Part shown: positions 5,533 to 62,980 of the stretch, piece by piece | Layout: each line of letters begins with the position of its first letter | Numbering within the stretch: the first letter of the stretch is position 1 | Source of the DNA: an uncultured bacterium | GTDB lineage: Bacteria > Patescibacteriota > Minisyncoccia > Phycocordibacterales > UBA9973 | DNA: 62,980 bases | Direction: 5' to 3' | Assembly: GCA_903838985.1 (NCBI GenBank) | Contig: CAIMAO010000014.1 | Location: forward strand, 1 to 62,980 | Position numbers and translations under genes: made by a program | The notes under the pieces: model-generated | Databases searched by the model: none | The model's input: the letters and a program-made list of their open reading frames with translations, nothing else | What the model was told of the DNA's origin: nothing

Positions 5533-5537
5533 GTAAA

Positions 5538-6755: not shown

Positions 6756-6758
6756 AAA

Positions 6759-7226: not shown

Positions 7227-7232
7227 ATTATA

Positions 7233-7739: not shown

Positions 7740-7751
7740 TCAGAGAACTTT

Positions 7752-15690: not shown

Positions 15691-17193
15691 ATGCAGGATA
15701 GAATTTTCTATTCAATTTGTTTTGGTTTCATAAGTGGAATATTTTTACGATCGCTAACCTTTGTTGATGTTTATTTGGTTGTTTTATTTGGAATAATTGC
15801 GCTTGTTTTGCTTTTCTTTTTTAAATTTATATCACCCCGTCACTCGCGAGCGACAGGGTCGAAAAATAAGTGGGGAATTATTTTGGGAATTTTTATTTTG
15901 TCTTTTTCTTTTGGAATATTTAGATTTCATTTAGCAGATGTTCCAGCACCACAAATTTTTGAATCTCAAGTGAATCAAAAAGTTATTCTTGTTGGAAAAA
16001 TTGTAGACGAACCAAGTTTGTCAGAAAATAATCAAAAATTGGTTGTAGAAATAGTAGAAAAAGATAGTAAAAGTAAAATTTTATTGTCATCTAATTTAGA
16101 TGAAGTTTATAAATATGGAGATGAAATAAAATTTGAAGGAAAATTAGAAAAACCAGATAATTTTATGACAGATCAAAATAAAGAATTTGATTATATAAAT
16201 TATTTACGTAAAGACGGCATATTTTATTCTGAAAGGTATCCTAAAATTGAAATATTATCACACGAGAATGGGAATTTTATAAAAAGTGCGCTATTTTCTG
16301 TTAAAGAATTTTTTATAAATAAAATTAGTTTGGTAATACGTGAACCAGAATCTTTATTTATGAATGGATTGATTTTGGGGGAGAAGTCTTCTTTTGGTCA
16401 ATCTTTAAGACAAAGTTTTGTGAATACTGGGACGATACACATAGTCGCACTTTCTGGATACAATGTGACTATCGTTGCTGAATGGATTATGAAAATTTTT
16501 GCTTTTTTACCTAAAAATCTAGGTATTTTTGCTGGAATTTTGGCTATTATTCTTTTTGTTTTAATGACAGGTGGGTCTTCGACGGCTATTCGTGCGGGCA
16601 TAATGGCTACACTTGCACTAGCCGCTCGTCTTATAGGGAGGAATTATGATGTGACAAGGGCACTTATTTTAGCGGGTGTTTTTATGGTTTTGATAAATCC
16701 ATTTATTCTTGTGTTTGATGTTTCGTTTCAACTTTCTTTTATCGCGACTGTCGCTGTGATTTATTTTTCTCCTAAATTAGAAAAACATTTTCTATGGGTC
16801 ACAGATAAATTTGGCTTGAGAGATATTGTTTCTGTCACATGTGCTGCATATATTTTTGTTTTACCTTTTATTCTTTATAAAATGGGTAATCTTTCTCTGG
16901 TTGCTTTGCCTGCGAATACTTTGATTTTGCCATTTATTCCGTTCACAATGATTTTAGGATTTTTGACTGGTTTTATTGGTATTATTTCGTATGTATTTTC
17001 AGTTCCATTTGGATATATATCTTATTTGTTTTTGCATTATGAGCTTTCGATAATAAGTTTCTTTTCAAATATACCTTTTGCGTCACTTACGATACCTGAT
17101 TTTCCACTTATTTTTACAATACTAATTTATGCCTATTTTATTTATAGACTTTTTGGAAGGAGTATAAAAAGTTTTTTTACTGAGCCTTTTTAA
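15691..17193 (+). CDS. comEC: ComEC/Rec2 DNA-uptake channel, N-terminal (OB/DUF4131-like plus competence) part
   Basis: 500-aa polytopic membrane ORF. GTIHIVALSGYNVTIV and GGSSTAIRAGIMA resemble the competence domain. No MBL domain in this ORF. Confidence 0.75.
   Translation: MQDRIFYSICFGFISGIFLRSLTFVDVYLVVLFGIIALVLLFFFKFISPRHSRATGSKNKWGIILGIFILSFSFGIFRFHLADVPAPQIFESQVNQKVILVGKIVDEPSLSENNQKLVVEIVEKDSKSKILLSSNLDEVYKYGDEIKFEGKLEKPDNFMTDQNKEFDYINYLRKDGIFYSERYPKIEILSHENGNFIKSALFSVKEFFINKISLVIREPESLFMNGLILGEKSSFGQSLRQSFVNTGTIHIVALSGYNVTIVAEWIMKIFAFLPKNLGIFAGILAIILFVLMTGGSSTAIRAGIMATLALAARLIGRNYDVTRALILAGVFMVLINPFILVFDVSFQLSFIATVAVIYFSPKLEKHFLWVTDKFGLRDIVSVTCAAYIFVLPFILYKMGNLSLVALPANTLILPFIPFTMILGFLTGFIGIISYVFSVPFGYISYLFLHYELSIISFFSNIPFASLTIPDFPLIFTILIYAYFIYRLFGRSIKSFFTEPF
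15833..15875 (+). repeat. G/C-rich island translated in-frame within comEC (SPRHSRATGSKNKWG loop)
   Basis: caccccgtcactcgcgagcgacagggtcg...gtgggg stands out from AT-rich flanks. It shares gcgagcgac with family-C cores. Confidence 0.5.
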
Positions 17194-26019: not shown

Positions 26020-29000
26020 ATGGACGCTAATAAAGAAAATAAGTCAGAAACAGCTTTTAGAGAAGAGCGTATTTTAGAGTTTTGGAAAGAAAATAATGTT
26101 TTTGAAAAATCATTAGAAAAAGAAGCTCCAAAAGGGAATTATGTTTTTTATGATGGCCCTCCTTTTGCTACGGGTCTTCCACATTATGGTCATATTTTAG
26201 GAAGTGTCACCAAAGATGTTATTGGACGTTATCAAACGATGTCTGGTTTTTCTGTGCCACGACGTTGGGGTTGGGATTGTCATGGTTTACCAATAGAAAA
26301 TATTGTTGAAAAAGATTTGAATATTTCTGGTAAGAAAGCCATTGAAGAAATGGGAATAGATAAATTTGTTGAATACGCTCGTAGTAAAGTTTTGACTTAT
26401 GTTTCTGAATGGGAAAAGACGGTTAACCGTATTGGAAGATGGGTGGATTTTAATAATTCTTATAAAACAATGGATAACACTTTCATTGAGAGTGTTTGGT
26501 GGGCGCTTGGAGAATTAAACAAAAAGGAATTACTTTATGAAGGCGTGAGAGTACTCGCATATTGTCCTCGTTGTGAAACTCCGATTGCCAATTCTGAAAT
26601 TGCGATGGATAACAGTTATAAAGATATCACTGATATTTCGGTGTATGTAAAATTTAAATTAAAACCAGGACAAAAGTTTGGGAAGAATGAAGATGGTGAA
26701 TGCACAACGCGAGATAGTGCCTATGTTATTGCATGGACGACAACGCCGTGGACACTCCCAGGAAATACTGCATTGGCTGTAAGTAAAGATGTTTCATATA
26801 GTGCAGTGCGAATTGATGACAAAGAAGAACTTTTGTTTGTTGCCACAGAGTTGGTAAATAAAATTTTTAAAGATCATAAGATTGAAATAGTTCGTACTTT
26901 TATGGGTTCAGGTCTTATTGGGCTTTCTTATGAGCCAATATTTGATTATTACAAAAATATTGATATGCCAAATAAAGAAAATATTTGGAAAGTTTGGCAT
27001 GCAGATTTTGTGACGACAGATGTGGGGACGGGGATAGTTCATGAAGCTCCTGCTTTTGGTGAAGATGATATGAATCTTGCTAAGGAACATAGCATTCCAT
27101 TTATTCGACACGTTGAACCAAATGGTACTTTCTCAAAAGAAGTTTTAGATTTTGTTGGAATAAAAGTTAAACCAAAAGAAGATCATCAATCAACTGATGT
27201 TTTGATAATTAAATTTTTAGCAAAAAATGGAACTCTTTTTGCGAAAGAAAAAATAATTCACTCTTATCCACATTGTTATCGTTGTGAAACCCCACTTCTT
27301 TATTATGCTTTGCCTTCATGGTTTGTGAATATACAAAAAGTCAAAAAAGATTTGCTTAAGAATGCTGAGATAATGAATTGGATTCCAGCTCATTTGAAAG
27401 ATGGACGTTTCAAAAATACAATGGAATCAGCTCCTGATTGGACTATTTCACGTAACCGTTATTGGGCAAGTCCTTTACCTATTTGGAAGTCAGACTCTAA
27501 CGAGATTATGTTTGTGAATTCTATTGAAGATTTAAAGAAAAAAACAAAAAAATCTGGAAATAAATATTTTGTAATGCGACATGGTGGTGCTGAAAGTAAT
27601 CTTAAAGATACTGTAAGTTCTAAAGTTGAAGACGTTGATCATTTAACAGAAGAGGGTAGGAAAGAAGTTTTGAAATCCGTTTTAGAGTTAAAAGACAAAA
27701 AAATTGATTTGATAATAGCTTCTGATTTCATGAGAACTAAGGAAACAGCAGAAATTGTTCAAAGAGAATTAGGACTTTCAAGTGATCAGCTAATTTTTGA
27801 TAAAAGACTATGGGAATTATGTGCAGGAGTTTTTGATGGAAAAACTTGGCAAGAATATTCTGATTTTCGTAAAGGAAAAGACTGGTATTCTTATGTACCA
27901 GAAGATGGAGAATCTTGGAAGCAAATGAAAAGAAGAACAATAGAATTTTTGTATGAGATAGAAGAAAAATATAAAGGAAAGAATATTTTAATAGTTACAC
28001 ATGAAGGTCCAGCTAGATCATTTTTTGTAGGATCTCAAGGATTAAGTGATATTGAAACAATAAAAGTACTAGAAAGTGACGAACTTGGTTTTAAAAACGC
28101 TCAAGTTCGAAATATCGAATTTGTTCCACTTCCTCATAATGAGAATTATGAGCTTGATTTACATAGGCCTTATATAGATAAGATCGTGCTTGTAGATGAA
28201 AAAGGTAAAGAATATAAAAGAATACCAGAAGTGATTGATTGTTGGTTTGAATCTGGTTCAATGCCATTTGCTCAAGATCATTATCCATTTGAAAATTTAG
28301 ACTGGAAAGATAAAAATTTTCCATCTGGTTTTGTCGCAGAGTATATTGCTCAGACAAGGACTTGGTTTTATTATACTCACGTTATTTCTTCTATATTATT
28401 TAATCAAGCACCATTTAAAAATGTTGTGACTACTGGGACTATCTTGGCAGAAGATGGTCAAAAAATGTCAAAATCAAAAAATAATTTTCCAGATCCTTGG
28501 ATATTATTTAATAAATATGGAGTTGACGCACTTCGTTTCTATTTGATGTCTTGTCCGGTTATGAAAGGTGAAGATATTAATTTCTTAGAGAAAGCAGTTC
28601 AGGATATTTCAAATAAAATAATAAATAGATTGAATAATGTTTTAGCTTTCTATGAATTATATCGTGATAGAGAATTGGAAACTTTGGAATATGAAAAGTC
28701 AGATGATATTTTGGATCAATGGATTGTTTCTCGTTTGAATGAATTAATTACTGAAACGACAGATGGGATGGAAAAATATGATATGTCTTTAGCGACAAAA
28801 CCTTTTGATTTATTTATTGGTGATCTTTCTACTTGGTATTTACGTAGATCACGTGACAGAATAAAAGATGGAGATAAAAACGCAAAACAAACTTTATATT
28901 TTGTATTAAAAACTCTCGCAAAATTGATGGCTCCATTTGCGCCATTTTCTGCTGAAGATATTTGGCTAAGATTAAAAAATGAAAAAGAAGTTGAAAGTGT

Positions 29001-29529
29001 TCATTTAGCAGAATGGCCCTTCGCTATCGCTCAGGACTTTCAGCCAGAAGTTTTAAAAAATATGGCAGAAATTAGAAAGATAGTTTCTCTTGGATTTGAT
29101 GCTCGTCAAAAAGCTGGTATAAAAGTTCGTCAGCCTCTTTCTGTATTAAAATTTAAGATAGAAAATAAATTATCTGATGAATTACTTTCTTTAGTTAAAG
29201 ATGAAGTCAATGTAAAAGAAGTAATTTTTGATAAAAACATTGAAGGAGAAATATTTTTAGACATAAACATTACCTCAGAATTGAAACAAGAGGGGGATTA
29301 TCGAGAATTAGTAAGAGCTATTCAAGATATGCGTAAAAAAATGGGACTTACTCCAAGTGACGTGGTTTCTGTCACTATTGAAACGAATGATGAAGGTAAA
29401 AATTTGATCCAAAAATTTGAAAATGATTTAGTAAAAGTTATTCTTGCTTCAAAAATTGAATTCAAAACTAATGAAGGTGAAGAAATAAAAATTGACGAAA
29501 TGGTATTCAAAACATCTATTCAAAAATGA
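26020..29529 (+). CDS. ileS: Isoleucine--tRNA ligase (type 2) carrying an internal histidine-phosphatase (PGAM-like) domain
   Basis: PHYGHILG (HIGH), WTISRNRYW, KMSKSK and DCWFESGSMP motifs. A ~190-aa insert carries RHG (FVMRHGGAESN), SDFMRTKETA and IVTHEG motifs. Confidence 0.9.
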   Translation: MDANKENKSETAFREERILEFWKENNVFEKSLEKEAPKGNYVFYDGPPFATGLPHYGHILGSVTKDVIGRYQTMSGFSVPRRWGWDCHGLPIENIVEKDLNISGKKAIEEMGIDKFVEYARSKVLTYVSEWEKTVNRIGRWVDFNNSYKTMDNTFIESVWWALGELNKKELLYEGVRVLAYCPRCETPIANSEIAMDNSYKDITDISVYVKFKLKPGQKFGKNEDGECTTRDSAYVIAWTTTPWTLPGNTALAVSKDVSYSAVRIDDKEELLFVATELVNKIFKDHKIEIVRTFMGSGLIGLSYEPIFDYYKNIDMPNKENIWKVWHADFVTTDVGTGIVHEAPAFGEDDMNLAKEHSIPFIRHVEPNGTFSKEVLDFVGIKVKPKEDHQSTDVLIIKFLAKNGTLFAKEKIIHSYPHCYRCETPLLYYALPSWFVNIQKVKKDLLKNAEIMNWIPAHLKDGRFKNTMESAPDWTISRNRYWASPLPIWKSDSNEIMFVNSIEDLKKKTKKSGNKYFVMRHGGAESNLKDTVSSKVEDVDHLTEEGRKEVLKSVLELKDKKIDLIIASDFMRTKETAEIVQRELGLSSDQLIFDKRLWELCAGVFDGKTWQEYSDFRKGKDWYSYVPEDGESWKQMKRRTIEFLYEIEEKYKGKNILIVTHEGPARSFFVGSQGLSDIETIKVLESDELGFKNAQVRNIEFVPLPHNENYELDLHRPYIDKIVLVDEKGKEYKRIPEVIDCWFESGSMPFAQDHYPFENLDWKDKNFPSGFVAEYIAQTRTWFYYTHVISSILFNQAPFKNVVTTGTILAEDGQKMSKSKNNFPDPWILFNKYGVDALRFYLMSCPVMKGEDINFLEKAVQDISNKIINRLNNVLAFYELYRDRELETLEYEKSDDILDQWIVSRLNELITETTDGMEKYDMSLATKPFDLFIGDLSTWYLRRSRDRIKDGDKNAKQTLYFVLKTLAKLMAPFAPFSAEDIWLRLKNEKEVESVHLAEWPFAIAQDFQPEVLKNMAEIRKIVSLGFDARQKAGIKVRQPLSVLKFKIENKLSDELLSLVKDEVNVKEVIFDKNIEGEIFLDINITSELKQEGDYRELVRAIQDMRKKMGLTPSDVVSVTIETNDEGKNLIQKFENDLVKVILASKIEFKTNEGEEIKIDEMVFKTSIQK
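29018..29037 (+). repeat. Diverged copy of the G/C-rich motif inside ileS (ccttcgctatcgctcaggac)
   Basis: Shares ccttcg...gctcaggac with the argS/ftsK 20-mer. Translated as PFAIAQD. Confidence 0.6.
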
Positions 29530-41980: not shown

Positions 41981-42088
41981 AACTCCAGAAACAATATTTT
42001 TGTCGGTACGGATTTTTTGAAGCTTAAAAAATCCTGAAATTGGCTCGCCGTCGCTCGCCAAACCCCTTAAAAATATTTTTCTGGAGTT
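41981..42088 (+). repeat. Family-A nested-hairpin element, copy A1 (between recA and efp)
   Basis: 20-bp outer stem with a bulged C (aactccagaaaCaatattttt / aaaaatatttttctggagtt) around a 67-nt core. The first 40 nt of the core are identical to copy A2. Confidence 0.9.
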
Positions 42089-42093
42089 ATTTT

Positions 42094-43131
42094 TTATTCT
42101 TCTGCAAACTTTTTACGAATTTCTTTTAAGATTTGATCTGCTATTTTGTGGTTTTCTTTTAAGAAAGTTCTTGTGGAATCATAACCCACACCTAATTTTA
42201 CTTTTTCAGCTTTTTCTCCACTTGGCATATAGAAATATGAATTACCAGTTTTTTCTACTATTTTAAATTTCTCTCCTAATGCAATAATTTCACCTTCTTT
42301 GGAAATACCTTCATTATAAATAATATCAAACTCTGTTTGTTTAAATGGCGCAGCAACTTTGTTTTTTACTACCTTCACACGAGTACGACTTCCGACGATA
42401 TCTTCTCCTTTTTTAATTTGTGCAATTTTTCTGATATCAAGTCTTACAGAAGTGTAAAATTTTAATGCTTTACCTCCTGGAGTAGTTTCAGGATTGCCAA
42501 ACATAACTCCGATTTGCATTCTTATTTGGTTTATAAAAATAACTACAGTTTTAGATCTAGCTACAATGGCTGTGAGTTTGCGAAGTGCTTGAGACATAAG
42601 TCTTGCTTGTTTACCTATATGATAAGCACCCATATCTCCCTCTATTTCATCCTTTGGTGTTAGTGCAGCGACAGAGTCTACGACAATGACATCAATTTTT
42701 CCTGTTCGTACTAGACTCTCAACTATCTCGAGTGCTTGTTCTCCTGTATCTGGTTGAGAGATAAGCAAGTCATCTATATTTACTCCAAGTTTTTTTGTAT
42801 AATCTGGGTCCATTGCATGTTCAGCATCTATATATGCACAGATTCCTCCGAGTTTTTGTGCTTCAGCACATATATGCAACGATAGGGTAGTCTTGCCTGA
42901 AGATTCTGGTCCAAATATTTCAATTATTCTTCCACGTGGTATTCCTCCGACACCGAGAGCCATATCAAGACCCAAAGAACCTGTAGGTATAGTATTTATA
43001 TCTACTTTTGGTGAATCACCAAGTTTCATAATTGAGCCTTCTCCAAATTTTGCTTGTATTGCTTTTAATGTATCATCAAGCATTGATACACCTACTGACT
43101 TATCTTCTTTTTTTTCTTTTTTCTTTACCAT
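42094..43131 (-). CDS. recA: Recombinase RecA
   Basis: GPESSGKTT Walker [10 protein letters not shown] Walker B, and loop motifs. Start set at [12 protein letters not shown] (ATG 43131). The longer track ORF runs into repeat element B1. Confidence 0.95.
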
Positions 43132-43141
43132 AAATTTTTTT

Positions 43142-43273
43142 GAATTATAAAACTTGTTGCAGGTGTAATTTTTGAGAGATATTGCGCAGGCTGTCGAGCC
43201 GAGCATAGCAAATTTTCAGTAGAAAATTATGCGTGTCTATCAAAAACTATACCAAAAAAAAGTTTTGTAATTC
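43142..43273 (-). repeat. Family-B nested-hairpin element, copy B1 (upstream of recA)
   Basis: Outer arms gaattataaaactt / aagttttgtaattc. The core 43181-43236 in reverse complement matches B2: acacgcata, then a 7-bp hairpin, then tgctatgctcggctcgNcagcctgcgcaat. Confidence 0.8.
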
Positions 43274-43638: not shown

Positions 43639-43727
43639 TGCGGGGTTTACTTTTTTGAGCTGGTCTGGTTGAGCCCTTAGGACTTAATGAGGGCGACCCG
43701 AGGACCCGAAAAAAAGTAAACCCCGCA
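43639..43727 (+). repeat. Family-C nested-hairpin element, copy C1 (immediately downstream of ftsK)
   Basis: 18-bp perfect outer stem tgcggggtttactttttt / aaaaaagtaaaccccgca. Core: gagctggtctggttgagc, a variable hairpin, then gcgacccgaggacccga. Confidence 0.9.
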
Positions 43728-45984: not shown

Positions 45985-46042
45985 ACTGCTATTTTATCAC
46001 AAAACGTGGATCTAAAAAAGAAAGGAAATAATTTCTTCCTTT

Positions 46043-46141
46043 GCGTAATGTTATGTTTTACGAGCTGGTCTGGTTGAGCTCGCTCTTTTAAAAAATTTTG
46101 TGCGAGCGACCCGAGGACCCGAGTAAAATATAAGATTATGC
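46043..46141 (+). repeat. Family-C nested-hairpin element, copy C2 (upstream of ftsK)
   Basis: 19-bp outer stem gcgtaatgttatgttttac / gtaaaatataagattatgc (two G-U pairs, one mismatch). Same 18-nt and 17-nt core blocks as C1, with a different inner hairpin (gctcgc...gcgagc). Confidence 0.85.
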
Positions 46142-46149
46142 AAAAATAT

Positions 46150-46258
46150 TTCCGCAAGGTTATTAAAAAAAATAGTCCGAATATTTTTTTACTAAAAAAT
46201 TTCTCAAGACTCGCGCCGTCGCGCTCCGTAGCCTATTTTTTTCAACAACCTTGCGGAA
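46150..46258 (+). repeat. Diverged family-A-like nested-hairpin element, copy A3
   Basis: 26-bp outer stem ttccgcaaggttattaaaaaaaatag / ctatttttttcaacaaccttgcggaa; both mismatches become G-U on the minus strand. The core contains ctcgcgccgtcgcgctc (compare A2 ctcgcaccgtcgcgctc). Confidence 0.75.
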
Positions 46259-46289
46259 AAAATGTCCTTAATGATTTCCTTTAAAGGAC

Positions 46290-46317
46290 TTGCAAAAAGT
46301 GTAGGTGTGTATATAAT
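46290..46317 (+). promoter_or_regulatory. Promoter TTGCAA-16 nt-TATAAT inside the annotated 5' end of the 46262 ORF
   Basis: TTGCAA at 46290-46295 and TATAAT at 46312-46317. An in-frame ATG at 46325 lies 7 nt downstream (leaderless-type spacing). Confidence 0.5.
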
Positions 46318-46324
46318 GGACAAC

Positions 46325-47242
46325 ATGTTAGGGGAAAATAAAAACATAAAAGACACCCCACAAAGCTCTCAAAAAGACACTTCTGCCATGTCTGCAAATC
46401 TTAGTAATGGCAGCCCAAGTGTTTCTCTCTCCACTATCTCACATTGGCATAATTTCTCTGGTTCTTATAAAAAGACAGACAAGCTCGTCACTGCACTTTA
46501 CATGGTCACAGACACTATGGAAAAAGAAGAACCAATGCGCCTAAAGTTAAGGACATTAGGAACAGAAATTCTATCGGACATACACAATATATCAAAGACT
46601 ATCCCTGATCTAGGAAGGATAGAACAAGTGTTGTCCTTTTTAAATATTGCTTACGATCTACATATGATTTCTGAAATGAACCACAGTATTTTAAAGAAAG
46701 AGTTTTTAGAGTTAAGAAAATCTATTAATGAATTTAAAGCACATAAAAACAATTGGCTTCCAGATTTTATGCTGGAGCCTGCAGAAAATTTTGAGCAAGA
46801 AGAATCTTCTATTTCTTACGAAAATGAATTAAATTCTTCTAACGGACATAAACAATTTAAGACCTTGTCCTTTATAAAAGGACATAGTGTTTCTCCTATA
46901 AAATCTGGCACAAGAATAGGTGTCCAAAAGGGAAGTACTTTGCTCACAGCTTTGAATAAAGTTGCTACATCAAAAGTTTCAAATGGGAGTGAAGGAAAAG
47001 AAGCTTTTGAGAACCTAAAAAATAAAAGACGTGAAGAGGTAATAGCTATCATAAAAGAGAAGAAAAATACTACAGGGATAGACGGAGCTACTATAACGGA
47101 CATCAGAAATATGGCTAAAGGAGCTCTTGTTTCTTGTGGAGAAAAAACATTACAAAGGGAACTTGTTTCTATGGTGTCCGATAGAATTTTATATCGGACA
47201 GGCTCTAAACGTTGGAGTAATTATTTTATAGTTGCTAAATAA
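46325..47242 (+). CDS. Hypothetical protein with helical N-domain and C-terminal winged-helix-like region
   Basis: ORF open from 46262. Start preferred at MLGENKNIKD because of the promoter spacing. The C-terminus ITDIRNMAKGALVSCGEKTLQRELVSMVSDRILYRTGSKRWSNY looks wHTH-like. Confidence 0.4.
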   Translation: MLGENKNIKDTPQSSQKDTSAMSANLSNGSPSVSLSTISHWHNFSGSYKKTDKLVTALYMVTDTMEKEEPMRLKLRTLGTEILSDIHNISKTIPDLGRIEQVLSFLNIAYDLHMISEMNHSILKKEFLELRKSINEFKAHKNNWLPDFMLEPAENFEQEESSISYENELNSSNGHKQFKTLSFIKGHSVSPIKSGTRIGVQKGSTLLTALNKVATSKVSNGSEGKEAFENLKNKRREEVIAIIKEKKNTTGIDGATITDIRNMAKGALVSCGEKTLQRELVSMVSDRILYRTGSKRWSNYFIVAK

Positions 47243-47305
47243 AACACCAGTCGCCAGATTGTTTATTTTAAAAGCTACTGACCCTTTTGTTTTTAAAAGC
47301 ATATC

Positions 47306-47409
47306 AGCACCAAATTACTAATTTAAAAACACGCATATTTGCTTGCTAGCAAATTGCTATGCTCGGCTCGTCAGCCTGCGCAATGTTTTAAAATCAGTAA
47401 TTTGGTGCT
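47306..47409 (+). repeat. Family-B nested-hairpin element, copy B2
   Basis: 19-bp outer stem agcaccaaattactaattt / aaatcagtaatttggtgct (1 mismatch). Core blocks 47329-47337 and 47355-47384 are shared with B1. The inner hairpin differs but is still paired. Confidence 0.85.
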
Positions 47410-47499
47410 TTTAGGGGAGGTAGTTAGGATATCTATTTTGCACCTAAAAACCCTTAAATCTCGTATATATTTATAAGGTAATTATTGTCCATTTTTTAG

Positions 47500-51174: not shown

Positions 51175-51197
51175 TTTGAATTGTTAAGGATATAAGA

Positions 51198-51285
51198 GTT
51201 TCTCAAAACTTAAAATTGAAAGTCTGATTGACTAAATCAATTCCAAAAACCCCGATCGCAATTTAAAGCGACGGGGTTTTTGCGT
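51198..51285 (+). repeat. 88-nt cassette-boundary repeat, copy R1 (palindrome plus intrinsic terminator)
   Basis: gtttctcaaaacttaaaattgaaagtctgattgactaaatcaattccaaaaaccccgatcgcaatttaaagcgacggggtttttgcgt. Starts 23 nt after the surface-protein stop. Confidence 0.9.
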
Positions 51286-51320
51286 TGGTTGGTTAAAATT
51301 TTTATGTTAAAATTATAATA

Positions 51321-51927
51321 ATGAAAAATAAACGTTACGCTTTTATAGACGTTCAAAATACTGAAAGCACCACTCGTCAACTTCTTGGTTTTTTAATTGA
51401 TTGGAAAAAGCTTTTTTTATTTCTTAAAAATGAATGGAAATGTGAAAAAGTTTTTTTTCTATTCTGGAATAGATGTTGGAGATATAGAAACTGAAAAAGA
51501 ATTTGAGAATCTTTCCAATGGAGGTTGTATTGTTTGTTCTAAAATTGTTTTTTCTTATAAAAACAAAAATAAAAACATTCAAACAAAATGTCCAAGTTGT
51601 GGTAATGAATTTATTGAAGTAGTTGATATGGGATATAACAGAAAATCAAATTGTGATGTTGATTTGACTGTTGATGCGATGGAAAACGCTAGTCCAAACA
51701 CTGAGTTTTATCTTTTTTCAGGTGATGGAGATTTTGAATATTTAATAAAAAAAGTGATAGAAAAAGGTGTATTTGTTCATATAGTATCAAGTGCGAAAAA
51801 AATAAAAAATGGACCCAATTATTCAACTTCTAGATTTTCCACAAAATTACGTAAACTTACTGAAGAAAAAGGTAAGCCCGTTGATTTTCTTAATATAGAT
51901 AATTTGAAGTTTAAAATTAAAAAATAG
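51321..51927 (+). pseudogene. NYN/LabA-like domain protein with Zn-ribbon insert, interrupted by a +1 frameshift in a T8 tract
   Basis: Frame 1 (51321-51458) encodes MKNKRYAFIDVQN...CEKVFF. The track ORF continues as FYSGIDVG...CDVDLTVDA...LFSGDGDFEYL in the +1 frame. The frames join at ttttttt(t) 51451-51458. Confidence 0.6.
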
Positions 51928-51934
51928 GCAAGCA

Positions 51935-51962
51935 AAAAGGCCGCGAAGCGCGACCTTTTTTA
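51935..51962 (+). terminator. G/C-rich hairpin terminator after the NYN gene
   Basis: aaaaggccgcg-aag-cgcgacctttttt (one internal mismatch) followed by a T-run. Confidence 0.7.
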
Positions 51963-52013
51963 ATGACAATTAAAGTATAACAAAACGTATTTTCTTGTCA
52001 AGCATTTTGTAGA

Positions 52014-52101
52014 GTTTCTCAAAACTTAAAATTGAAAACCTGATTGACTCAATCAATTCCAAAAACCCCGATCGCAATTTAAAGCGACGGGGTTTTTGCA
52101 T
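52014..52101 (+). repeat. 88-nt cassette-boundary repeat, copy R2
   Basis: Near-identical to R1, R3 and R4 (a few substitutions by manual alignment). Confidence 0.9.
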
Positions 52102-52129
52102 TTTTATCTCACCCCATAATTGATAGGGC

Positions 52130-52156
52130 AGCCCCCTACACCAGGTGTAGGGGGCT
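52130..52156. repeat. REP-like palindrome P1 (agccccctacacc-a-ggtgtagggggct)
   Basis: Perfect 13-bp arms. Lies 18 nt upstream of the RayT-like ATG. Contains GTAG/CTAC. Confidence 0.9.
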
Positions 52157-52173
52157 ATGTTATAATAATAAAT

Positions 52174-52875
52174 ATGACATACAGAAAAGTTTCTTTATCG
52201 TCTGGAGAATATTTTCATATTTTTAATAGGGGGAACAGTAAACAGAAAATTTTTCTTGATGAAAAAGACAGAGAGCGTTTTGTAAAACTTTTGTATTTAT
52301 CTAACTCGAAGAAGAGCGTTAATTTCCGTGATGATATTGTAAGTCAGAAAATTGACGCTTTTGATTTTGATAGGGGAGAAACTCTTGTTTCGATTGGTGC
52401 TTGGGTCTTGATGCCAAATCATTTTCATATATATTTAACGTCCCCTACACCAGGTGTAGGGGACGAAGAGATGAAGAGAAACGAGGAAAATAAATCTAAT
52501 ATTACATTATTTGTACATAAACTTTGTATGAGTTATGTAAAATATTTTAATAAAAAATATGACAGGACTGGTGCGCTTTTTGAAGGACCTTTTAAATCTG
52601 TTCATATAGAAAATGATGGCCAAGCGAAATATCTTTTCTCGTATATACACTTAAATCCTTTGAAACTTATTGATCCAAATTGGAAAGAAAATATTAATAA
52701 AAATATTGATATCACTTTAAAATATTTAGATAATTACAATTGGAGTAGTTATAATGATTATTATGGAATTTTAAGAAAAGAAAATAAAATTTTACAACGA
52801 AAAGATTTTCCAGATTATTTTTCTGATATTAAAAGTTTTAAATCAGAAATTTTTTCTTGGTTAAAATATGAGTAG
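52174..52875 (+). CDS. IS200-like Y1 (HUH) transposase of the RayT/COG1943 type
   Basis: YFHIFNRGN, WVLMPNHFHIYL (HUH), KYFNKKYDRTGALFEGPFKS, YLFSYIHLNPLK (catalytic Tyr region), and NWSSYNDY. Start set at MTYRKVSL. Confidence 0.7.
   Translation: MTYRKVSLSSGEYFHIFNRGNSKQKIFLDEKDRERFVKLLYLSNSKKSVNFRDDIVSQKIDAFDFDRGETLVSIGAWVLMPNHFHIYLTSPTPGVGDEEMKRNEENKSNITLFVHKLCMSYVKYFNKKYDRTGALFEGPFKSVHIENDGQAKYLFSYIHLNPLKLIDPNWKENINKNIDITLKYLDNYNWSSYNDYYGILRKENKILQRKDFPDYFSDIKSFKSEIFSWLKYE
52441..52463. repeat. REP-like palindrome P2, in-frame inside the transposase gene
   Basis: tcccctacacc-a-ggtgtagggga is translated as SPTPGVG directly after the HUH motif. Confidence 0.9.
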
Positions 52876-52883
52876 TTTAATTT

Positions 52884-52908
52884 TTCCCCTACACCAGGTG
52901 TAGGGGAA
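52884..52908. repeat. REP-like palindrome P3
   Basis: ttcccctacacc-a-ggtgtaggggaa, 9 nt after the transposase stop. Confidence 0.9.
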
Positions 52909-52963
52909 AGTCGTTTTGTTTTGCAATTTGCGGTTTTTATTTTGCTTGTGGTATTATAAAAGT

Positions 52964-53224
52964 ATGAAAAAAGTTGTGAAAAAAACATCTGATAAATTTC
53001 TTACGGAAACTAAGTTTGAAAAGAGTATGCAATCTGTTGCAAAATCTTTTGCAGACCAGGCTGATGTTATGCAAATGATGCTTAAAGAAATCAAGACAAT
53101 TCATCAAGATAATAGATATTTTAAGGAAAATATTGTTAGTTTAAACAGTGATGGTTTGTCTTATGATAAGAAAATTGAAAATCTAACTATTAGAATAGAA
53201 AAACTAGAGCTTAAAGTAAGTTAG
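52964..53224 (+). CDS. Small coiled-coil protein, function unknown
   Basis: 86-aa ORF starting MKKVVKKTSDKF, 6 nt after an extended -10 (TGgTATTAT). The longer track ORF start lies in the promoter module. Confidence 0.35.
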   Translation: MKKVVKKTSDKFLTETKFEKSMQSVAKSFADQADVMQMMLKEIKTIHQDNRYFKENIVSLNSDGLSYDKKIENLTIRIEKLELKVS

Positions 53225-53233
53225 TTAACTAAA

Positions 53234-53321
53234 GTTTCTCAAAACTTAAAATTGAAAGTCTGATTGACTCAATCAATTCCAAAAACCCCGATCGCAATTT
53301 AAAGCGACGGGGTTTTTGCGT
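53234..53321 (+). repeat. 88-nt cassette-boundary repeat, copy R3
   Basis: Starts 9 nt after the preceding stop codon. Palindrome tgattga-c-tcaatca plus terminator ccccgatcgc-aatttaaa-gcgacggggttttt. Confidence 0.9.
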
Positions 53322-53351
53322 TTCCTCCCGCTCCATATCGATATTGATAGT

Positions 53352-53382
53352 GCAGCCCCCTACACCAGGTGTAGGGGGCTGC
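53352..53382. repeat. REP-like palindrome P4 (perfect 15-bp arms)
   Basis: gcagccccctacacc-a-ggtgtagggggctgc. Preceded by attgatagtg, as P1 is by attgataggg. Confidence 0.9.
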
Positions 53383-53433
53383 TTTGTCCTGAAGTTTGCA
53401 ATTTTTATTTTGCTTGTGGTATGCTTAAGGTAT

Positions 53434-53721
53434 ATGAAAAAGGCAACATTTCAAATTGGTTTACCAATAACAATATTTAAAGAAGGGAAAAGCTATGTAG
53501 CATATAGTCCGGCTCTTGATCTTTCTACTTCTGCCTCTACATATTTAAAGGCAAGAAGTCGTTTTTCAGAAGTAACCAAAATATTTTTTGAAGAACTTAC
53601 AGAAATGGGCACCTTAGAATCTGTGCTTGCTAGTTTGGGTTGGCAAAAATTAAAAACAAATTGGCATCCACCAGTTGTTGTTTCAAACTATACACAATCT
53701 ATAAATTTAACAAATGCCTAA
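53434..53721 (+). CDS. hicB: HicB-like antitoxin (UPF0150-type N-domain)
   Basis: IFKEGKSYVAYSPALDLSTSASTYLKA pattern. Overlaps the downstream hicA-like gene by 8 nt. Start set at MKKATFQIG. Confidence 0.6.
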   Translation: MKKATFQIGLPITIFKEGKSYVAYSPALDLSTSASTYLKARSRFSEVTKIFFEELTEMGTLESVLASLGWQKLKTNWHPPVVVSNYTQSINLTNA

Positions 53722-53944
53722 AAAGCAAAATATAACTAATAAACAGTTTCAAAAATTTCTGGTATATTTAGGTTGTACTTTAAAACGTTCTCATGGAGAC
53801 CACTTTGTTTATATTCGTTCAGGTTTAATTCGTCCAATTATTATACCGAAAGATAGTCCCTTGCCACAGTTTATTATTAGAAACAATTTAAGATTGCTTG
53901 GTTTAACATGGGAAGAATTTTTTGATATTTTAAATAAATTGTAA
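53714..53944 (+). CDS. hicA: HicA-like mRNA interferase toxin
   Basis: 76 aa. KFLVYLGCTLKRSHGDHFVYI...IIIPKDSPLPQFIIRNNLRLLGLTWEEF fits the HicA/YcfA pattern. Confidence 0.65.
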   Translation: MPKKQNITNKQFQKFLVYLGCTLKRSHGDHFVYIRSGLIRPIIIPKDSPLPQFIIRNNLRLLGLTWEEFFDILNKL

Positions 53945-53960
53945 TCACAGCTTATTATTT

Positions 53961-54182
53961 ATGAATACAAAATATGATAAAATTGCAGATGCACTTTATG
54001 TTAAATTTAAGCAAGGTAAAATTGCCAAGACTCTTCGTCTTGAGAATCATCTAATAGTTGATTTAGATAATAAGTCAAATATTTTGGGAGTAGAACTTCT
54101 CAACGCTAAATCTCAACTTGCACCAGCATTTATAAAACAATTTTTTGGAAAAGATATCGTTAAACAAATTGCTTTTGCTTAA
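53961..54182 (+). CDS. DUF2283-family small protein
   Basis: YDKIADALYVKF...IVDLDNKSNILGVELLNA matches the DUF2283 pattern as I recall it. Confidence 0.6.
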   Translation: MNTKYDKIADALYVKFKQGKIAKTLRLENHLIVDLDNKSNILGVELLNAKSQLAPAFIKQFFGKDIVKQIAFA

Positions 54183-54187
54183 GTATA

Positions 54188-54276
54188 GTTTCTCAAAACT
54201 CAAAATTGAAAGCCTGATTGACTCAATCAATTCCAAAAACCCCGATCGCAATTTAAAGCGATGGGGTTTTTTGCGT
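54188..54276 (+). repeat. 88-nt cassette-boundary repeat, copy R4
   Basis: Starts 5 nt after the DUF2283 stop. Four differences from R3, including one extra T. Confidence 0.9.
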
Positions 54277-54302
54277 TTTTATCTGTATGATATAATAAAA
54301 TT

Positions 54303-55948: not shown

Positions 55949-58900
55949 ATGAAGAATAAGATATTGTTTATTTTTATTCTAATTTGTTTGTTTTCTATTT
56001 GCGTTAAGGTTTCAGCAAATGAAATATGTTCTCCAACAGGGTATAGTGTTGTTACGGTCAATGGTATATTTACTGATGAAAAGGGGGCGAAATATAATAA
56101 AAATCAATTATCTTATAAACTTGCGGCAACCTATAATAATGAACCGATAAACATTGATTATCTGTACAACCAAACCCACCTTCTCGGTGTTGGGGATTTG
56201 ATTGATGCTGTAAATCAAGGACTTTTTGACCAAAAATCTGATTATGATTTGGTGGAAATGATAAATGATGCAAGTCAAAAAGTTAAAACCCAAAAACTTT
56301 TACTCGTTTCTCATTCACAGGGTAATTTTTACGCAAATAATTTTTATGACAAAGTAGCAGATCAACAAGGTGGTGTTCCTTCTAAATCTATTGGAGTTTA
56401 TAGTGTTGCTTCTCCAGCAAATCGTGTTGCTGGCGGAGGAAAATATCTAACTTCAGATACAGATAAAGTCATAGCTTCTGTGGTGGGTCGTTTCATCAAA
56501 ATTTTACCACCAAATATTCATATACCTTTGCAAGAAGCCGATGGTAATGGGCATAGTTTTTCAGATGTTTATTTAAAATATCAAAGTGATAGGATTATTT
56601 CTGATATAAAATCTTCTCTTAATAATTTAAAAGAAAATGATGAACAAGAGGCAGATCAGCCTTGTATTTCTGCACCAGAATTGACAATAAATCATAAAAT
56701 ACAAGGTGTTTTATTGAATTCTGCAGATTTTGTAATAAACAATACAAAAAGTGCGACAGTGTATGCCGCAAATACTTTATATAATACGACGCTAGCTGTG
56801 GGTAATGTTGTGAAAGGTTTACTAGCCACAGCTGTAGAAAGTTTACCAAATACTAAAAGTGTGACTACGTTGCCTGTTGTTGTCCCAGAAAATAAAAATA
56901 CAAATGTTGCAAACCAAAATATTCCAAAAGAAACGACAAAAGTTGTTGATAAAAATATAATTAAAGAAACAAAAAATACTGAAACAACCAAGGTAGTAAA
57001 AGTTGCTGATGTTTCTCCAGTTTTAGACAAAAAAGATGTTTTGAGCAACGTCATAAAACCCGTTGTTTCTAATGTTGTTTCTTTTGGAGGCGGTGGAGGT
57101 GGGGGGAGTGTCGTCGTCGTTCAGCCAGAAGAAAAACCAGTAATAAAAGATGAAAAGAAAGATGATCCAGTAGTGCCACCACCAGTAGAACCTGTTCCAG
57201 ATGTCACTTCACCGGTCATTACTATTTTAGGGAATAACCCAGAAGTAGCAATTACAAATTCTGTTTATGTTGATGCTGGAGCTACTGCCCTCGATGCTGT
57301 AGATGGTGTGCGTGAGGTGGAGAGTACTGGCACTGTTGATACATCTAGAAGAGGAAGTTATATCATTATATATAAAGCTTCAGATAAGTCTGGAAATATT
57401 GCGACAGCTACTCGTACGGTGAATGTTGCAACTTATAAATATGTTCCTAAATATAAATTTGGCCTAGATAATGGTGATGGTAATTATTGGCAGAATTGGG
57501 CATTTAATGGATCAAATGTTTATGATTGGGCTGACAGTTATGTAGATAATTATTTACATGAACAATTTAAAATTCAAACTTATGCTGGAGGTTTTTGGTG
57601 TTCGCAATGTTTACAGCGTGGTGTTTTTAAACATAATCCTCAAGAAGGTTTTGAAAGATCAGATCTCTTAACTTCTGGTCTTGAAAATAATCCACAAAAT
57701 AATGAAATTGATATGATTTACAATGTTGTTATTCAATGGGATTCTGCTGGTTATACTTATAAAATTACAAATGGTGATAATGTTTATGCGACAGGACGCA
57801 CAGATGTTGCGAATTTAAATAAAGATATGTGGGTCGGTTGGGATGGTTCCTTTAATGATTTTAAGAATTTTCCTGCAGGAAATTGGACGGGTTCTTCTGG
57901 TTGGTACCCATTTGGTCTCACAGGCGGGGGAAGTATGATTTTGCAACCATTTCCAATTTATAAAGAGCCTACCTCTGCAAGTCCTTCACTTTCTCTTATA
58001 AATAAAGGTGTATATGCAGGAGTAGGTGTGACGCCGACATATGGTAGGACGAATTTAACAGCATTTAATTTTCAAGTAATTTATACAGATAAAAATAATA
58101 TTGCACCACAAAATGTAAAACTTCATGTTGTTAACACAGTTACAGGGTTTTCTTTTCCAGAAGTTTCGATGACAAAGATATCTCAGGGCGGGGATGTTTT
58201 AAGTGATGGAAATTTTGCAAACGGAGAAATATATACTGCAAATAATATTTTGTATGACACAGGAATTTATAAATATTATTTTACCGCAAATGATGGTTCT
58301 GGAAATTTGGTAGAAATGCCTTACAACGAAAGATTAAATTTTGGTGTTGTGCCTTCCACTTACACTTATATTCCTCAATATTCTTTTGGGACAGAAAATG
58401 GAGATGGAAATAATTGGCAAGTTTGGTCTTTTAATGGATCAAATGTCTATGATTGGTCAGACACGTATGTTGATAATTATTTGCATGAACAATTTAAACT
58501 TCAAGATTATCCTGGGGGATTTTGGTGCTCGCAATGTTTACAAAGAGGTATATTTAATCACGATCCACAAAAAGGTTTTGAAACTTATGATCTTCTCACG
58601 TCTAATCTGGAACACAATCCACAGAATAATATGATTGCCGTTACTTATGATGTATCTTTGCAATGGGACGCAACTGGTTATACATATACTATTTCTCATG
58701 ATGCTACTGTTGATGCCACTGGCCATACAGATGTTGCAAACGTGAATGAAAATATGTGGGTTGGCTGGGATGGATCGTTTAATAATTTTAAAACTTTTCC
58801 TTCTGGACGTTGGCAAGGTGCTTCGGGCTGGTATCCGTTTGGTTATACAGGTGGGGATAGTATGATTTTGAAACCTTATCCAGTTTATGTTTATTCTGGC

Positions 58901-59581
58901 CCCATTCTTAGTAAACAAAAGTCTGTTACTTCTTTTAATTTTATGAATTTAGTTCCAGAAGTTGACGGAGTTCTTGATGAAAATAATCATACTATTTCTA
59001 TGACTGTTTCATTTGGGACAGATGTGAAAACTCTTGTGCCGACTATTGGAATTTCTCTAAGTGCGTCTGTTGTTCCAAATAATAATGTTGTTCAAGATTT
59101 TACTAATCCTGTCACTTACACCGTTACAGCAGAAAATGGTTCTATACAAAATTATATTGTGACAGTAAATGTTGCTCCAGATCCAAACCCAGTACCTGCA
59201 CCAGTTCCTGATCCCGTTCCAGCTCCAGATGTTACTCCGCCTTCTATTACAAGTTATACACTTAATGGTGTTGCTGATAATGTGACAATAAATCCAGCTA
59301 AAACACCTGTTTCTGTTGTTTTAAATTCTAGTGAAAATGTAAATTGGATGTCTATAAAAATTGAAAATCAGAATGATATAGGAATTTACAAAACATTTCT
59401 GTCTGGAAATGGTTGTGTTGATGGTACGAATACTTGCAGTAAAACTTGGGATGGGGCTTTGACTAAGGGAGATATTCAAAATGGTGCTTATCATATTAAA
59501 GTTCACATGAAAGATCCAGCAAATAATGAATTTAATGATTATATTCTCCCTTATGTAATAAATGTAGACACTTCTATTTAA
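55949..59581 (+). CDS. Giant secreted protein (1210 aa): lipase-like alpha/beta-hydrolase head, Pro-rich linkers, Ig-like segments, duplicated ~190-aa Trp/Cys-rich module
   Basis: Signal peptide. LLLVSHSQGNFY nucleophile elbow. PVITILGNNPE...DAVDGV Ig-like segment. Tandem modules begin near nt 57431 and 58358 (NGDGN.WQ.W.FNGSNVYDW.D.YVDNYLHEQFK...GGFWCSQCLQRG). Confidence 0.5.
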   Translation: MKNKILFIFILICLFSICVKVSANEICSPTGYSVVTVNGIFTDEKGAKYNKNQLSYKLAATYNNEPINIDYLYNQTHLLGVGDLIDAVNQGLFDQKSDYDLVEMINDASQKVKTQKLLLVSHSQGNFYANNFYDKVADQQGGVPSKSIGVYSVASPANRVAGGGKYLTSDTDKVIASVVGRFIKILPPNIHIPLQEADGNGHSFSDVYLKYQSDRIISDIKSSLNNLKENDEQEADQPCISAPELTINHKIQGVLLNSADFVINNTKSATVYAANTLYNTTLAVGNVVKGLLATAVESLPNTKSVTTLPVVVPENKNTNVANQNIPKETTKVVDKNIIKETKNTETTKVVKVADVSPVLDKKDVLSNVIKPVVSNVVSFGGGGGGGSVVVVQPEEKPVIKDEKKDDPVVPPPVEPVPDVTSPVITILGNNPEVAITNSVYVDAGATALDAVDGVREVESTGTVDTSRRGSYIIIYKASDKSGNIATATRTVNVATYKYVPKYKFGLDNGDGNYWQNWAFNGSNVYDWADSYVDNYLHEQFKIQTYAGGFWCSQCLQRGVFKHNPQEGFERSDLLTSGLENNPQNNEIDMIYNVVIQWDSAGYTYKITNGDNVYATGRTDVANLNKDMWVGWDGSFNDFKNFPAGNWTGSSGWYPFGLTGGGSMILQPFPIYKEPTSASPSLSLINKGVYAGVGVTPTYGRTNLTAFNFQVIYTDKNNIAPQNVKLHVVNTVTGFSFPEVSMTKISQGGDVLSDGNFANGEIYTANNILYDTGIYKYYFTANDGSGNLVEMPYNERLNFGVVPSTYTYIPQYSFGTENGDGNNWQVWSFNGSNVYDWSDTYVDNYLHEQFKLQDYPGGFWCSQCLQRGIFNHDPQKGFETYDLLTSNLEHNPQNNMIAVTYDVSLQWDATGYTYTISHDATVDATGHTDVANVNENMWVGWDGSFNNFKTFPSGRWQGASGWYPFGYTGGDSMILKPYPVYVYSGPILSKQKSVTSFNFMNLVPEVDGVLDENNHTISMTVSFGTDVKTLVPTIGISLSASVVPNNNVVQDFTNPVTYTVTAENGSIQNYIVTVNVAPDPNPVPAPVPDPVPAPDVTPPSITSYTLNGVADNVTINPAKTPVSVVLNSSENVNWMSIKIENQNDIGIYKTFLSGNGCVDGTNTCSKTWDGALTKGDIQNGAYHIKVHMKDPANNEFNDYILPYVINVDTSI

Positions 59582-60871: not shown

Positions 60872-60983
60872 AAAAAACCAAGAACAAGATTTTTGTCGGT
60901 ACGGATTTTTTGAAGCTTAAAAAATCCTGAAATTCTCGCACCGTCGCGCTCGAAACCCCTTAAAAATCTTTTCTTGGTTTTTT
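60872..60983 (+). repeat. Family-A nested-hairpin element, copy A2, acting as the rplL terminator
   Basis: 22-bp outer stem with a bulged C (aaaaaaccaagaaCaagattttt / aaaaatcttttcttggtttttt) followed by a T-run. 67-nt core; the first 40 nt are identical to A1. Confidence 0.9.
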
Positions 60984-62847: not shown

Positions 62848-62980
62848 TAACAGGAAATTTAAGGGCGTATGGTGGATGCCTTGACTTTAAGAGGCGATGA
62901 AGGACGTGGCGTTGCTGCGATAAGCTTCGGGGAGGTGCTTAGCTACCTTTGATCCGGAGATTTCCGAATGGGGAAACCCT
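62848..62980 (+). rRNA. rrl: 23S ribosomal RNA, 5' end (partial, runs off the window)
   Basis: gggcgtatggtggatgccttg...aggcgatgaaggacgtg...gataagcttcgggga...gatccggagatttccgaatggggaaaccc matches the universally conserved 23S domain I start. The exact 5' end is approximate. Confidence 0.85.

Follow-up and report, generated by a model that had tools for sequence, protein, structure and literature searches.

The window analysed here, a stretch of 62,980 nucleotides (nt) of contig CAIMAO010000014.1 (assembly GCA_903838985.1), carries repeated elements, designated Family A, that apparently constitute a large undescribed family of ~110-base hairpin elements of the Patescibacteria, or candidate phyla radiation (CPR). 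Family A is read as belonging to a superfamily of small, non-coding palindromic insertion elements that extends across the Patescibacteria and of which it forms one family. On balance it is probably a non-autonomous mobile element, similar to the Rickettsia palindromic elements (RPEs) or to mitochondrial GC clusters, with a cis-acting core that would be recognised as a folded single strand. The inserted DNA is the whole unit, including its closing stem, and is found at gene ends and in permissive protein loops, with the genic copies appearing, from their sequence, to be read through in frame. The elements are gained, lost, replaced by members of related families and doubled, and the core flips inside the closing stem. 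Their helices are kept by compensation and the nucleotides of the core are kept far better than those of the surrounding essential gene.

The element is a unit of ~110 nt in which an A+T-rich inverted repeat, P1, closes a three-way junction with two hairpins, the A+T-rich P2 and the G+C-rich P3, and in which the junction bases GGUAC, CUGAAGU and AAACCCC are conserved. Three copies in the window, A1, A2 and A3 (Table 1), consist of long stems (21-27 bp) around a core of ~65 nt with two hairpins. Their folds are far more stable than those of shuffled sequences (z = -5.4 to -7.2; 0/200 shuffles equal), and the heptamer CCGTCGC occurs six times in the window against 0.43 expected. Two main core types were distinguished, type 1 (A1 and A2) and type 2 (A3, subtype 2b). 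A preliminary description, made from the letters of the window, had proposed that A1 and A2 share an identical 5' core with a 9-bp internal hairpin, followed by a related G+C-rich block; the stretch TTTTTGTCGGTACGGATTTTTTGAAGCTTAAAAAATCCTGAAATT is indeed common to both, the hairpin GGATTTTTT/AAAAAATCC is P2, and the block is present in both copies as P3, with AAACCCCTT following it. The identical part comprises the inner stem, GTCGGTAC, hairpin P2 and CTGAAATT, and P3 of both copies has the loop CGTC, with AAACCCC 3' of the hairpin. The enclosing stems were correctly described as homologous but different (21 bp in A1, 23 bp in A2), the differences always falling on both arms: AATATTTTT/AAAAATATT against AAGATTTTT/AAAAATCTT, and CCAGAAA/TTTCTGG against CAAGAA/TTCTTG. 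The assignment of A3 as a diverged long-stem member also holds, its 27-nt arms being 93% complementary and its core recognisably akin to that of A1 and A2. An unpaired C, thought to be conserved, is present in A1 (41992) and A2 (60885) with nine Watson-Crick pairs and one G.U pair above it, but it is not a conserved C of the family as a whole. The recurrent feature is a bulge of one nt, located 7-9 bp below the junction in the 5' arm of 24 of the 53 type-1 copies, against four copies bulged in the 3' arm.

To delimit the family, 185,579 species genomes were searched with a degenerate core pattern matching A1-A3, and at least 120 stretches matched. Among the matches listed, the full element was present in 72 stretches with 77 copies, all 72 of them metagenome-assembled genomes (MAGs) of Patescibacteria (Nomurabacteria, Paceibacterota, Yonathbacteria, Moranbacteria and MAGs labelled Saccharibacteria); the window and these 72 MAG loci together hold 80 core copies, several copies per MAG were seen, and the remaining matches were chance hits in coding DNA of G+C-rich genomes, without the core. 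Cores of 53-64 nt are identical between different genomes, with covariance model (CM) E-values down to 1e-36, an apparent conservation that is inflated in the genome loci because they were fished with the core pattern, whereas a set of tsaD loci described below is free of that bias. The copies are also phylogenetically related, so that cell counts and the shuffle and binomial p-values given here do not represent independent events. At most 8 kb of DNA was read around each genome match, and no split, possibly autonomous version of the core was found in the loci examined. Together, the genome scan and the tsaD-anchored metagenome scan gave more than 100 copies, all in Patescibacteria, and the stem differences among them are paired rather than random. 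A scan of IMG/VR gave two chance matches and no core copy. Rfam, including its hammerhead, twister, Y RNA, signal recognition particle (SRP) and 6S models, gave nothing at the gathering threshold in the window and 15 loci, and at a permissive threshold the best match, at E up to 10, was noise. In full-text searches of the literature, no account of elements of this kind in CPR bacteria came up.

A closing stem is present in every one of the 77 copies, with inverted repeats of 17-41 bp (only 6 bp in one copy) that are 94% Watson-Crick and have a median of 24 pairs. In the P1 arms 1816 of ~1960 aligned positions are Watson-Crick, and the arm sequences are almost wholly different between copies, a P1 consensus being common only to sub-classes of them. 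An ungapped alignment of the 77 cores showed changes on both sides in 11 of 21 pairs, and 0/500 shuffles reached the observed values. When a covariance model was built and 108 copies were aligned to it, 87.3% of cells were paired, compared with 67.6% in shuffles and 39-67% with the partners slid, bearing in mind that a model-fitted alignment favours the structure. All three helices covary in this alignment, with double changes in 31 of 32 pairs and a covariation score of 0.449 against 0.122 in shuffles (0/500 as high). In P2, for example, the second pair is never broken: 78 copies have G-C there, 16 A-U, 11 C-G and two U-A. The compensatory switches of both P2 and P3 are clean, the key positions having few broken pairs or none. 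P3 retains its 2x2 TC/TC internal loop, which lies 2 or 4 bp from the hairpin tip, both arms switching together, and the outer P3 pairs switch from U-A to G-C or C-G. The three junction strands remain constant even where the whole P2 stem is replaced (CAATTTTCT/AGAAAATTG, in some tsaD copies). The claim that paired substitutions conserve the folded form therefore stands across the 108 copies, but the accompanying picture of simply a small structured RNA gene with a conserved bulged C is not supported. Arm-to-arm templated repair in quasi-palindromes is an established mechanism, and because paired changes in a long palindrome can arise in this way, covariation of P1 alone is no proof of RNA function; the paired changes in P1 may derive partly from templated repair rather than from selection.

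Several copies are genic, placed in frame and in one orientation or the other within long conserved open reading frames (ORFs). They occur in tsaD (at the same site in two genomes) and in genes for a UvrD-like helicase, a phosphoglucomutase-like protein, an MnmA-like protein, PheT and an aminopeptidase; a peptide is predicted from the genic copies (e.g. GLGSATARARGIFQQK), and the peptide search used for the genic-copy census was insensitive, with 14 weak matches. In the window, an insert in recJ, with 24-nt arms that are 96% complementary and a 50-nt G+C-rich core, interrupts the DHH domain, and the RecJ of the window has ~31 extra residues between TDHH and LPxAYAI relative to solved RecJ structures (PDB 8y30). 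A broader view of one genic site was obtained from 80 tsaD loci (L123-L202) fetched from metagenomes by protein similarity, a set that is for this reason independent of the element pattern, and in which the YPGGP-LPRPM stretch was readable in 79 loci. Ten of the 79 alleles have the short form of this loop (60 nt), and the other 69 carry in-frame inserts of 21-189 nt, mostly 75-93 nt, of at least eight recurrent families and in both orientations, several alleles being double or nested. There was no stop codon or frameshift in any of the 69 inserts. The covariance model recognised Family A relatives in 31 of the loci (32 matches, with two in L187), again in both orientations. Across the tsaD loci the 53-nt type-2 core is 96-100% identical, compared with ~36-40% at adjacent tsaD third codon positions and 41-54% in the P1 arms (67-75% in some pairs). 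The two orientations encode unrelated peptides, which indicates that it is the nucleic acid and not the protein that is conserved. Between alleles L126 and L192 the P1 arms are homologous, down to a shared G.T mismatch in one and the same arm, but the enclosed core is inverted, indicating that the core flips inside the stem. Some alleles scored as empty (L129, L177 and L159) contain short perfect palindromes, such as ATCCAAGGT-CTC-ACCTTGGAT in L177.

Gain, loss and replacement were also apparent at orthologous intergenic sites. The efp-recA-114aa-ftsK cluster was compared between the window and two other genomes, L039 (RecA 89% identical) and L092 (RecA 79% identical). The recA-efp site holds a type-1 element in the window and in L039, the 114aa-recA site a type-3 element in the window and a type-4 element in L039, and the ftsK-114aa site a type-4 element in both, while all three sites are empty in L092; downstream of efp there is a classical G+C-rich terminator in the window, a type-1 element in L039 and a type-2 element in L092. 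The two recA-efp copies lie between well-conserved flanks, and their P1 stems differ throughout, with compensation; the two copies also differ in the P3 variant. Two type-4 copies of L039, 400 nt apart, have the same P1, from which it follows that the stem travels with the core. Downstream of rplL, the window and L024 have the element in the direction of the gene, whereas L030 has it inverted. Presence and absence at orthologous sites was thus seen both at this cluster, in three genomes, and in the tsaD loop, with 10 empty and 69 filled alleles. Taken together, in-frame genic copies, both orientations at one site, presence and absence, and replacement by related families are properties of an insertion, or mobile, element. 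Insertion of a core into a pre-existing terminator hairpin was rejected as a general rule, because the stem is part of the genic inserts (75-98 nt) and P1 is common to the two L039 copies. A gene split or an intron was likewise rejected: the neighbours of the tightly packed intergenic copies are complete and different genes, and every genic copy is in frame. In one class of copies (L003, L083, L058, L046, L092 and tsaD alleles L123, L127, L133, L137, L144 and L154) the direct hexamer GCTCGC (GAGCGA on the other strand) stands on both sides of P1, and it is repeated inside the P3 variant GGCTCGCCGTCGCTCGCC. This hexamer could represent a specific target that was duplicated, or else belong to the element as its outer part.

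The position of the elements relative to genes bears on an alternative that is considered unlikely overall, namely that Family A is a host-beneficial structured RNA module at the 3' end of the upstream gene, acting as a terminator, an exonuclease protector or a protein or RNase site, with the genic copies as tolerated accidents. Taking the orientation of A1-A3 as '+', 52 of 69 upstream genes run in the direction of the element, and in 33 of these 52 P1 starts at most 20 nt past the co-directional stop codon (at most 10 nt in 23). Convergent (24 of 61) and tandem contexts (32, comprising 22 co-directional and 10 opposed) are enriched and divergent ones rare (5 of 61), the element takes the place of the classical G+C-rich terminator downstream of efp, the foot of P1 in A1 and A2 bears T-runs, and such a module would also fit with the strong covariation, the conserved bases of the junction and the way every copy is conserved at the nucleotide level. 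However, only 9 of the 77 copies carry a U-tract, taken as 7 or more T among the 10 nt at the 3' foot of P1 (mean 4.05), so that the family is not a terminator in general, and an intrinsic terminator, with the stem directly followed by a U-tract, was rejected on the same count. Both orientations are found at one site, downstream of rplL (window against L030) and in the tsaD loop, where an essential ORF carries an insert in 69 of 79 alleles, which suits a 3'-end module poorly, and the sister genome L092 lacks the element at three sites. Further, the '-' strand folds better in 70 of 77 copies (mean -42.6 against -38.1 kcal/mol), owing to the tandem GA/GA loop and to 50 against 18 wobble-compatible P1 mismatches, so that the better-folding strand is antisense to the preferred gene direction. 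P2 has G.U pairs in the '+' sense in 10 cells of the 108-copy alignment, and overall the strand signals (wobble pairs, stability, GC skew and gene direction) conflict. A DNA-level site, with the core bound as duplex or extruded cruciform by a nucleoid, topoisomerase, structural-maintenance-of-chromosomes (SMC) loading or replication factor that would need chromosome-wide sites polar to replication, would account for the bias of the '+' strand to the G-rich (leading) strand (63 of 77 loci; 44 against 8 where |skew| > 0.05, p = 4e-7), and would fit the co-orientation of all co-resident pairs in one locus (though A4 of the window opposes A1, A2, A3 and A5), the spacing of about one Family A copy per 10-20 kb in the window and the conservation of sequence in coding and non-coding DNA alike. 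The repetitive extragenic palindromic (REP) and bacterial interspersed mosaic elements (BIMEs) of enterobacteria are a precedent for such a site. Proposed roles of REP/BIME elements are listed in PMC12306157. A DNA-level site is nevertheless judged improbable, as the compensatory changes in the short P2 and P3 stems point to a folded single strand rather than to duplex recognition, several unrelated core families replace one another at the same site, and six elements lie within 5.5 kb (41.9-47.5 kb), unlike spaced architectural sites.

Small self-cleaving ribozymes are often multi-copy and dispersed, as Family A is, and a three-way junction with conserved strands and covarying helices, conserved above the flanking essential gene, could suggest a self-processing or self-mobilising module, either a catalytic junction like that of a ribozyme or DNAzyme or the RNA or single-stranded DNA part of an unrecognised mobility system. 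Such a module would explain the near-total conservation of the core, but it too seems improbable: no Rfam ribozyme matched even at E = 10, manual threading onto the hammerhead failed, and the in-frame, stop-free genic copies point to an mRNA that is translated through and not cut. In the rejected hammerhead comparison, CUGAAGU resembles CUGANGA and GAAA and GUA fit partly, but where the sheared G8.A13 and A9.G12 pairs should form, the bases instead make covarying Watson-Crick pairs. Analogies with a kink-turn, a Y RNA with bulged C, SRP and attC were dropped because the anatomy does not fit. Intrinsic terminators with A- and T-runs are common and the genome is A+T-rich, and unrelated long terminator hairpins might in principle look alike by chance or low complexity; this is hardly credible and is refuted by the identical 53-64-nt cores across genomes, the excess of CCGTCGC (6 against 0.43) and the E-values of the covariance model down to 1e-36. 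It is also conceivable, though rather doubtful, that the double-hairpin core of ~55-65 nt is the active nucleic-acid module of an unrecognised Patescibacteria-specific system, be it the cis element or ribozyme-like part of a hairpin-borne mobility or homing mechanism, or a site that a host process requires in every copy, rather than passive selfish DNA. If so, this would be a module whose nucleotides are more strongly constrained than host essential genes and whose closing stem is free to change.

On the mobile-element reading, the core would act in cis and be recognised in its folded, single-stranded form, as DNA at the replication fork or as RNA, which is suggested by the covariation, the conserved junction, the polar bulge and the orientation bias. 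Copying, homing or maintenance of the element would fall to a putative factor acting in trans and encoded at a distance. P1 would need only to pair and could drift by paired changes, through selection and/or arm-to-arm templated repair, and at sites where a classical terminator has given way to a copy the hairpin probably doubles as a 3'-end structure, as a by-product. Several observations weigh against a mobile element. To our knowledge, no mobilising enzyme is known, and no transposase, integrase, HUH protein or reverse transcriptase was found among the 55 of 57 window ORFs scanned. There was no convincing target-site duplication at A1, A2 or A3. No Family A pair with near-identical P1 at clearly unrelated sites in one genome was seen, so that recent transposition of Family A is not demonstrated, and related genomes have kept the copies downstream of rplL and between recA and efp, as they would a host function. 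Copies of one genome have near-identical cores and unrelated P1 arms; this is not the pattern of a simple burst-and-decay transposon and implies constraint or gene conversion acting on every copy. With constraint on every copy, the host 3'-end RNA module and the DNA site for a chromosomal protein stay live rivals of the mobile-element reading.

Among known systems, the RPEs occur between genes and also in frame in unrelated housekeeping genes, adding a peptide in a tolerated part of the protein (PMC10969869). Family A and its relatives are similarly palindromic repeats of ~100-150 bp in a reduced A+T-rich genome, in several families and with no associated transposase known, and their insertions in ORFs are in frame and protein-compatible (the 69 open tsaD alleles and the recJ insert). 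The likeness drawn here is one of behaviour: Family A is placed as working like an RPE rather than as a member, and the copies found here are all in MAGs of a different phylum, the Patescibacteria. In contrast to the usual pattern, the apical core of Family A is near-invariant and the inverted-repeat arms are variable; the core is a covarying double hairpin that flips within its arms, and one protein loop hosts many families. Mitochondrial palindromic GC clusters turn over, merge and are under constraint (PMC4478555). They share with Family A the form of short G+C-rich palindromes in a very A+T-rich genome, a turnover like that of transposable elements, constraint, merging or nesting and an occasional location in genes. 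However, fungal mitochondrial GC clusters and double-hairpin elements are organellar, ~30-80 nt long and without a 20-27-bp closing stem, whereas Family A inserts carry a long A+T-rich stem and the family spans many genera of free bacteria. [quoted passage not shown] Asymmetric bulges are a further likeness, and an orientation bias would be expected from replication-coupled transposition of single-stranded DNA. In REPINs, however, it is the arms (the REPs, headed by GTAG or CGTC) that are conserved, around a variable spacer, the reverse of Family A, where CGTC is the loop of P3; REPs are extragenic, whereas Family A is also found in frame in genes, and no gene for a RAYT, TnpA or other Y1 transposase is present in the window. 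Family A resembles MITEs in being a small non-coding unit with several copies per genome; its inverted repeats, always present, are the least conserved part (41-54% against 96-100% for the core). Unlike integron attC sites, which have conserved ends around a variable centre and follow cassette ORFs in a single orientation, it has variable ends outside the RYYYAAC/GTTRRRY consensus and occurs in both orientations and at genic positions. In chloroplast non-coding DNA, hairpin loops between inverted repeats flip recurrently and the stem stays; this resembles the core flip between L126 and L192, but it is a generic mutational phenomenon and explains only the flipping.

The Patescibacteria make up a large share of bacterial diversity and have tiny, tightly packed genomes with few recognised mobile elements. 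Widespread structured inserts would give these bacteria a new source of variation in protein loops and of genome dynamics, as the elements lengthen essential proteins (TsaD, RecJ), replace terminators and turn over at hot spots. For annotation, unexplained inserts of 25-35 residues and spurious small ORFs in CPR proteins may derive from such elements. The combination of a near-invariant core and a free stem makes for a tractable case, for which selfish propagation, gene conversion and function at every copy are the candidate forces, and the core provides a ready probe for a putative recognising factor.

Table 1. Positions of Family A and related elements, and of their parts, in the window
Feature	Positions	Strand	Details
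A1, complete type-1 element	41981-42088	+	CM 97.4 bits, E 8e-29
A1, P1 5' arm	41981-42002	+	AACTCCAGAAA-C-AATATTTTTG; unpaired C at 41992; pairing read base by base
A1, P1 3' arm	42068-42088	+	TAAAAATATTTTTCTGGAGTT; pairs with 41981-42002
A1, hairpin P2	42010-42034	+	GGATTTTTT / loop GAAGCTT / AAAAAATCC; 42010-42018 with 42026-42034
A1, hairpin P3	42040-42061	+	TTGGC-TC-GC-CGTC-GC-TC-GCCAA; 2x2 TC/TC internal loop, GA/GA on the other strand
A2, complete type-1 element	60872-60983	+	CM 101.4 bits; P1 begins 12 nt past the end of the rplL ORF (60860, + strand)
A2, P1 arms	60872-60895, 60961-60983	+	unpaired C at 60885
A2, hairpin P2	60903-60927	+	60903-60911 with 60919-60927
A2, hairpin P3	60933-60954	+	
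A3, type-2b element	46149-46259	+	CM 73.2 bits
A3, P1 arms	46149-46175, 46233-46259	+	
A3, hairpin P2	46179-46203	+	
A3, P3 stem-loop	46213-46224	+	
A4, diverged member, type 3	43152-43261	-	CM 35.9 bits, E 1.7e-8; between 114-aa gene and recA
A5, diverged member, type 3	47304-47413	+	CM 33.4 bits, E 1.2e-7; downstream of ORF 46262-47242
Type-4 element	43639-43727		core CGGGTCCTCGG...CCAGACC; same architecture, 18-bp perfect stem; between ftsK and 114-aa gene
Second type-4 element	46040-46145		orientation opposite to 43639-43727; directly abuts A3
Long-stem element with G+C-rich core, further family	12357-12454		inside recJ (ORF 11900-13654), keeping the frame; immediately follows the catalytic DHH motif

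The window has a G+C content of 30-36% and carries the housekeeping genes of a small genome, and a 23S rRNA gene begins in it. A1 is flanked by two genes of the - strand, with the recA stop at 42094 and the efp start at 41927, and A3 lies between the divergent starts of ftsK and a hypothetical gene. With its filters off, the covariance model identified two significant window members beyond A1-A3, namely A4 and A5, in which the type-3 P3 (GGCT CGAC AGCC) is a compensated version of GCGC CGTC GCGC. The type-4 family is also found at the orthologous L039 sites and in the tsaD loop of other genomes. Altogether five Family A copies and three copies of related families are present in 63 kb, the intergenic gaps from efp to ORF 46262-47242 are all occupied, and one more copy follows that ORF. 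The recA ORF as called mechanically (42094-43206) is overlong at its 5' end, the RecA domain beginning at residue 43 and orthologues aligning from residue 37; the true start is the ATG near 43098, which places A4 between genes and not within recA.

A number of further features were observed elsewhere in the window. The region 51194-54277 holds four copies of a 94-nt intergenic repeat (91-100% identical) with a terminator-like hairpin end (CCCCGATCGC...GCGACGGGGTTTTT) and four copies of the palindrome CCCCTACACCAGGTGTAGGGG, interleaved with small genes (for an NYN-domain protein, HicA, DUF2283 and proteins of no assigned kind), and looks like a cassette-like array of small genes. An isoleucyl-tRNA-synthetase-like ORF (26020-29529, 1169 aa) has a complete His_Phos_1 domain (residues 517-670) inside its class-I synthetase domain, and a surface-protein-like ORF with Ig-like domains (55949-59581, 1210 aa) has a 300-nt direct repeat (57431-57730 and 58358-58657, 76% identical). 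The 23S rRNA gene start (62849-62980) is directly downstream of a mechanosensitive-channel-like gene; there is no 16S rRNA or tRNA gene in the 63 kb upstream of it, and on the absence of 16S rRNA from that interval the rRNA genes appear to be unlinked. Genes for a PilB-like ATPase, a PilC-like platform protein, a pseudopilin and ComEC (3787-8249 and 15691-17193) represent type IV pilus and competence functions, as is expected for a DNA-scavenging Patescibacteria cell.

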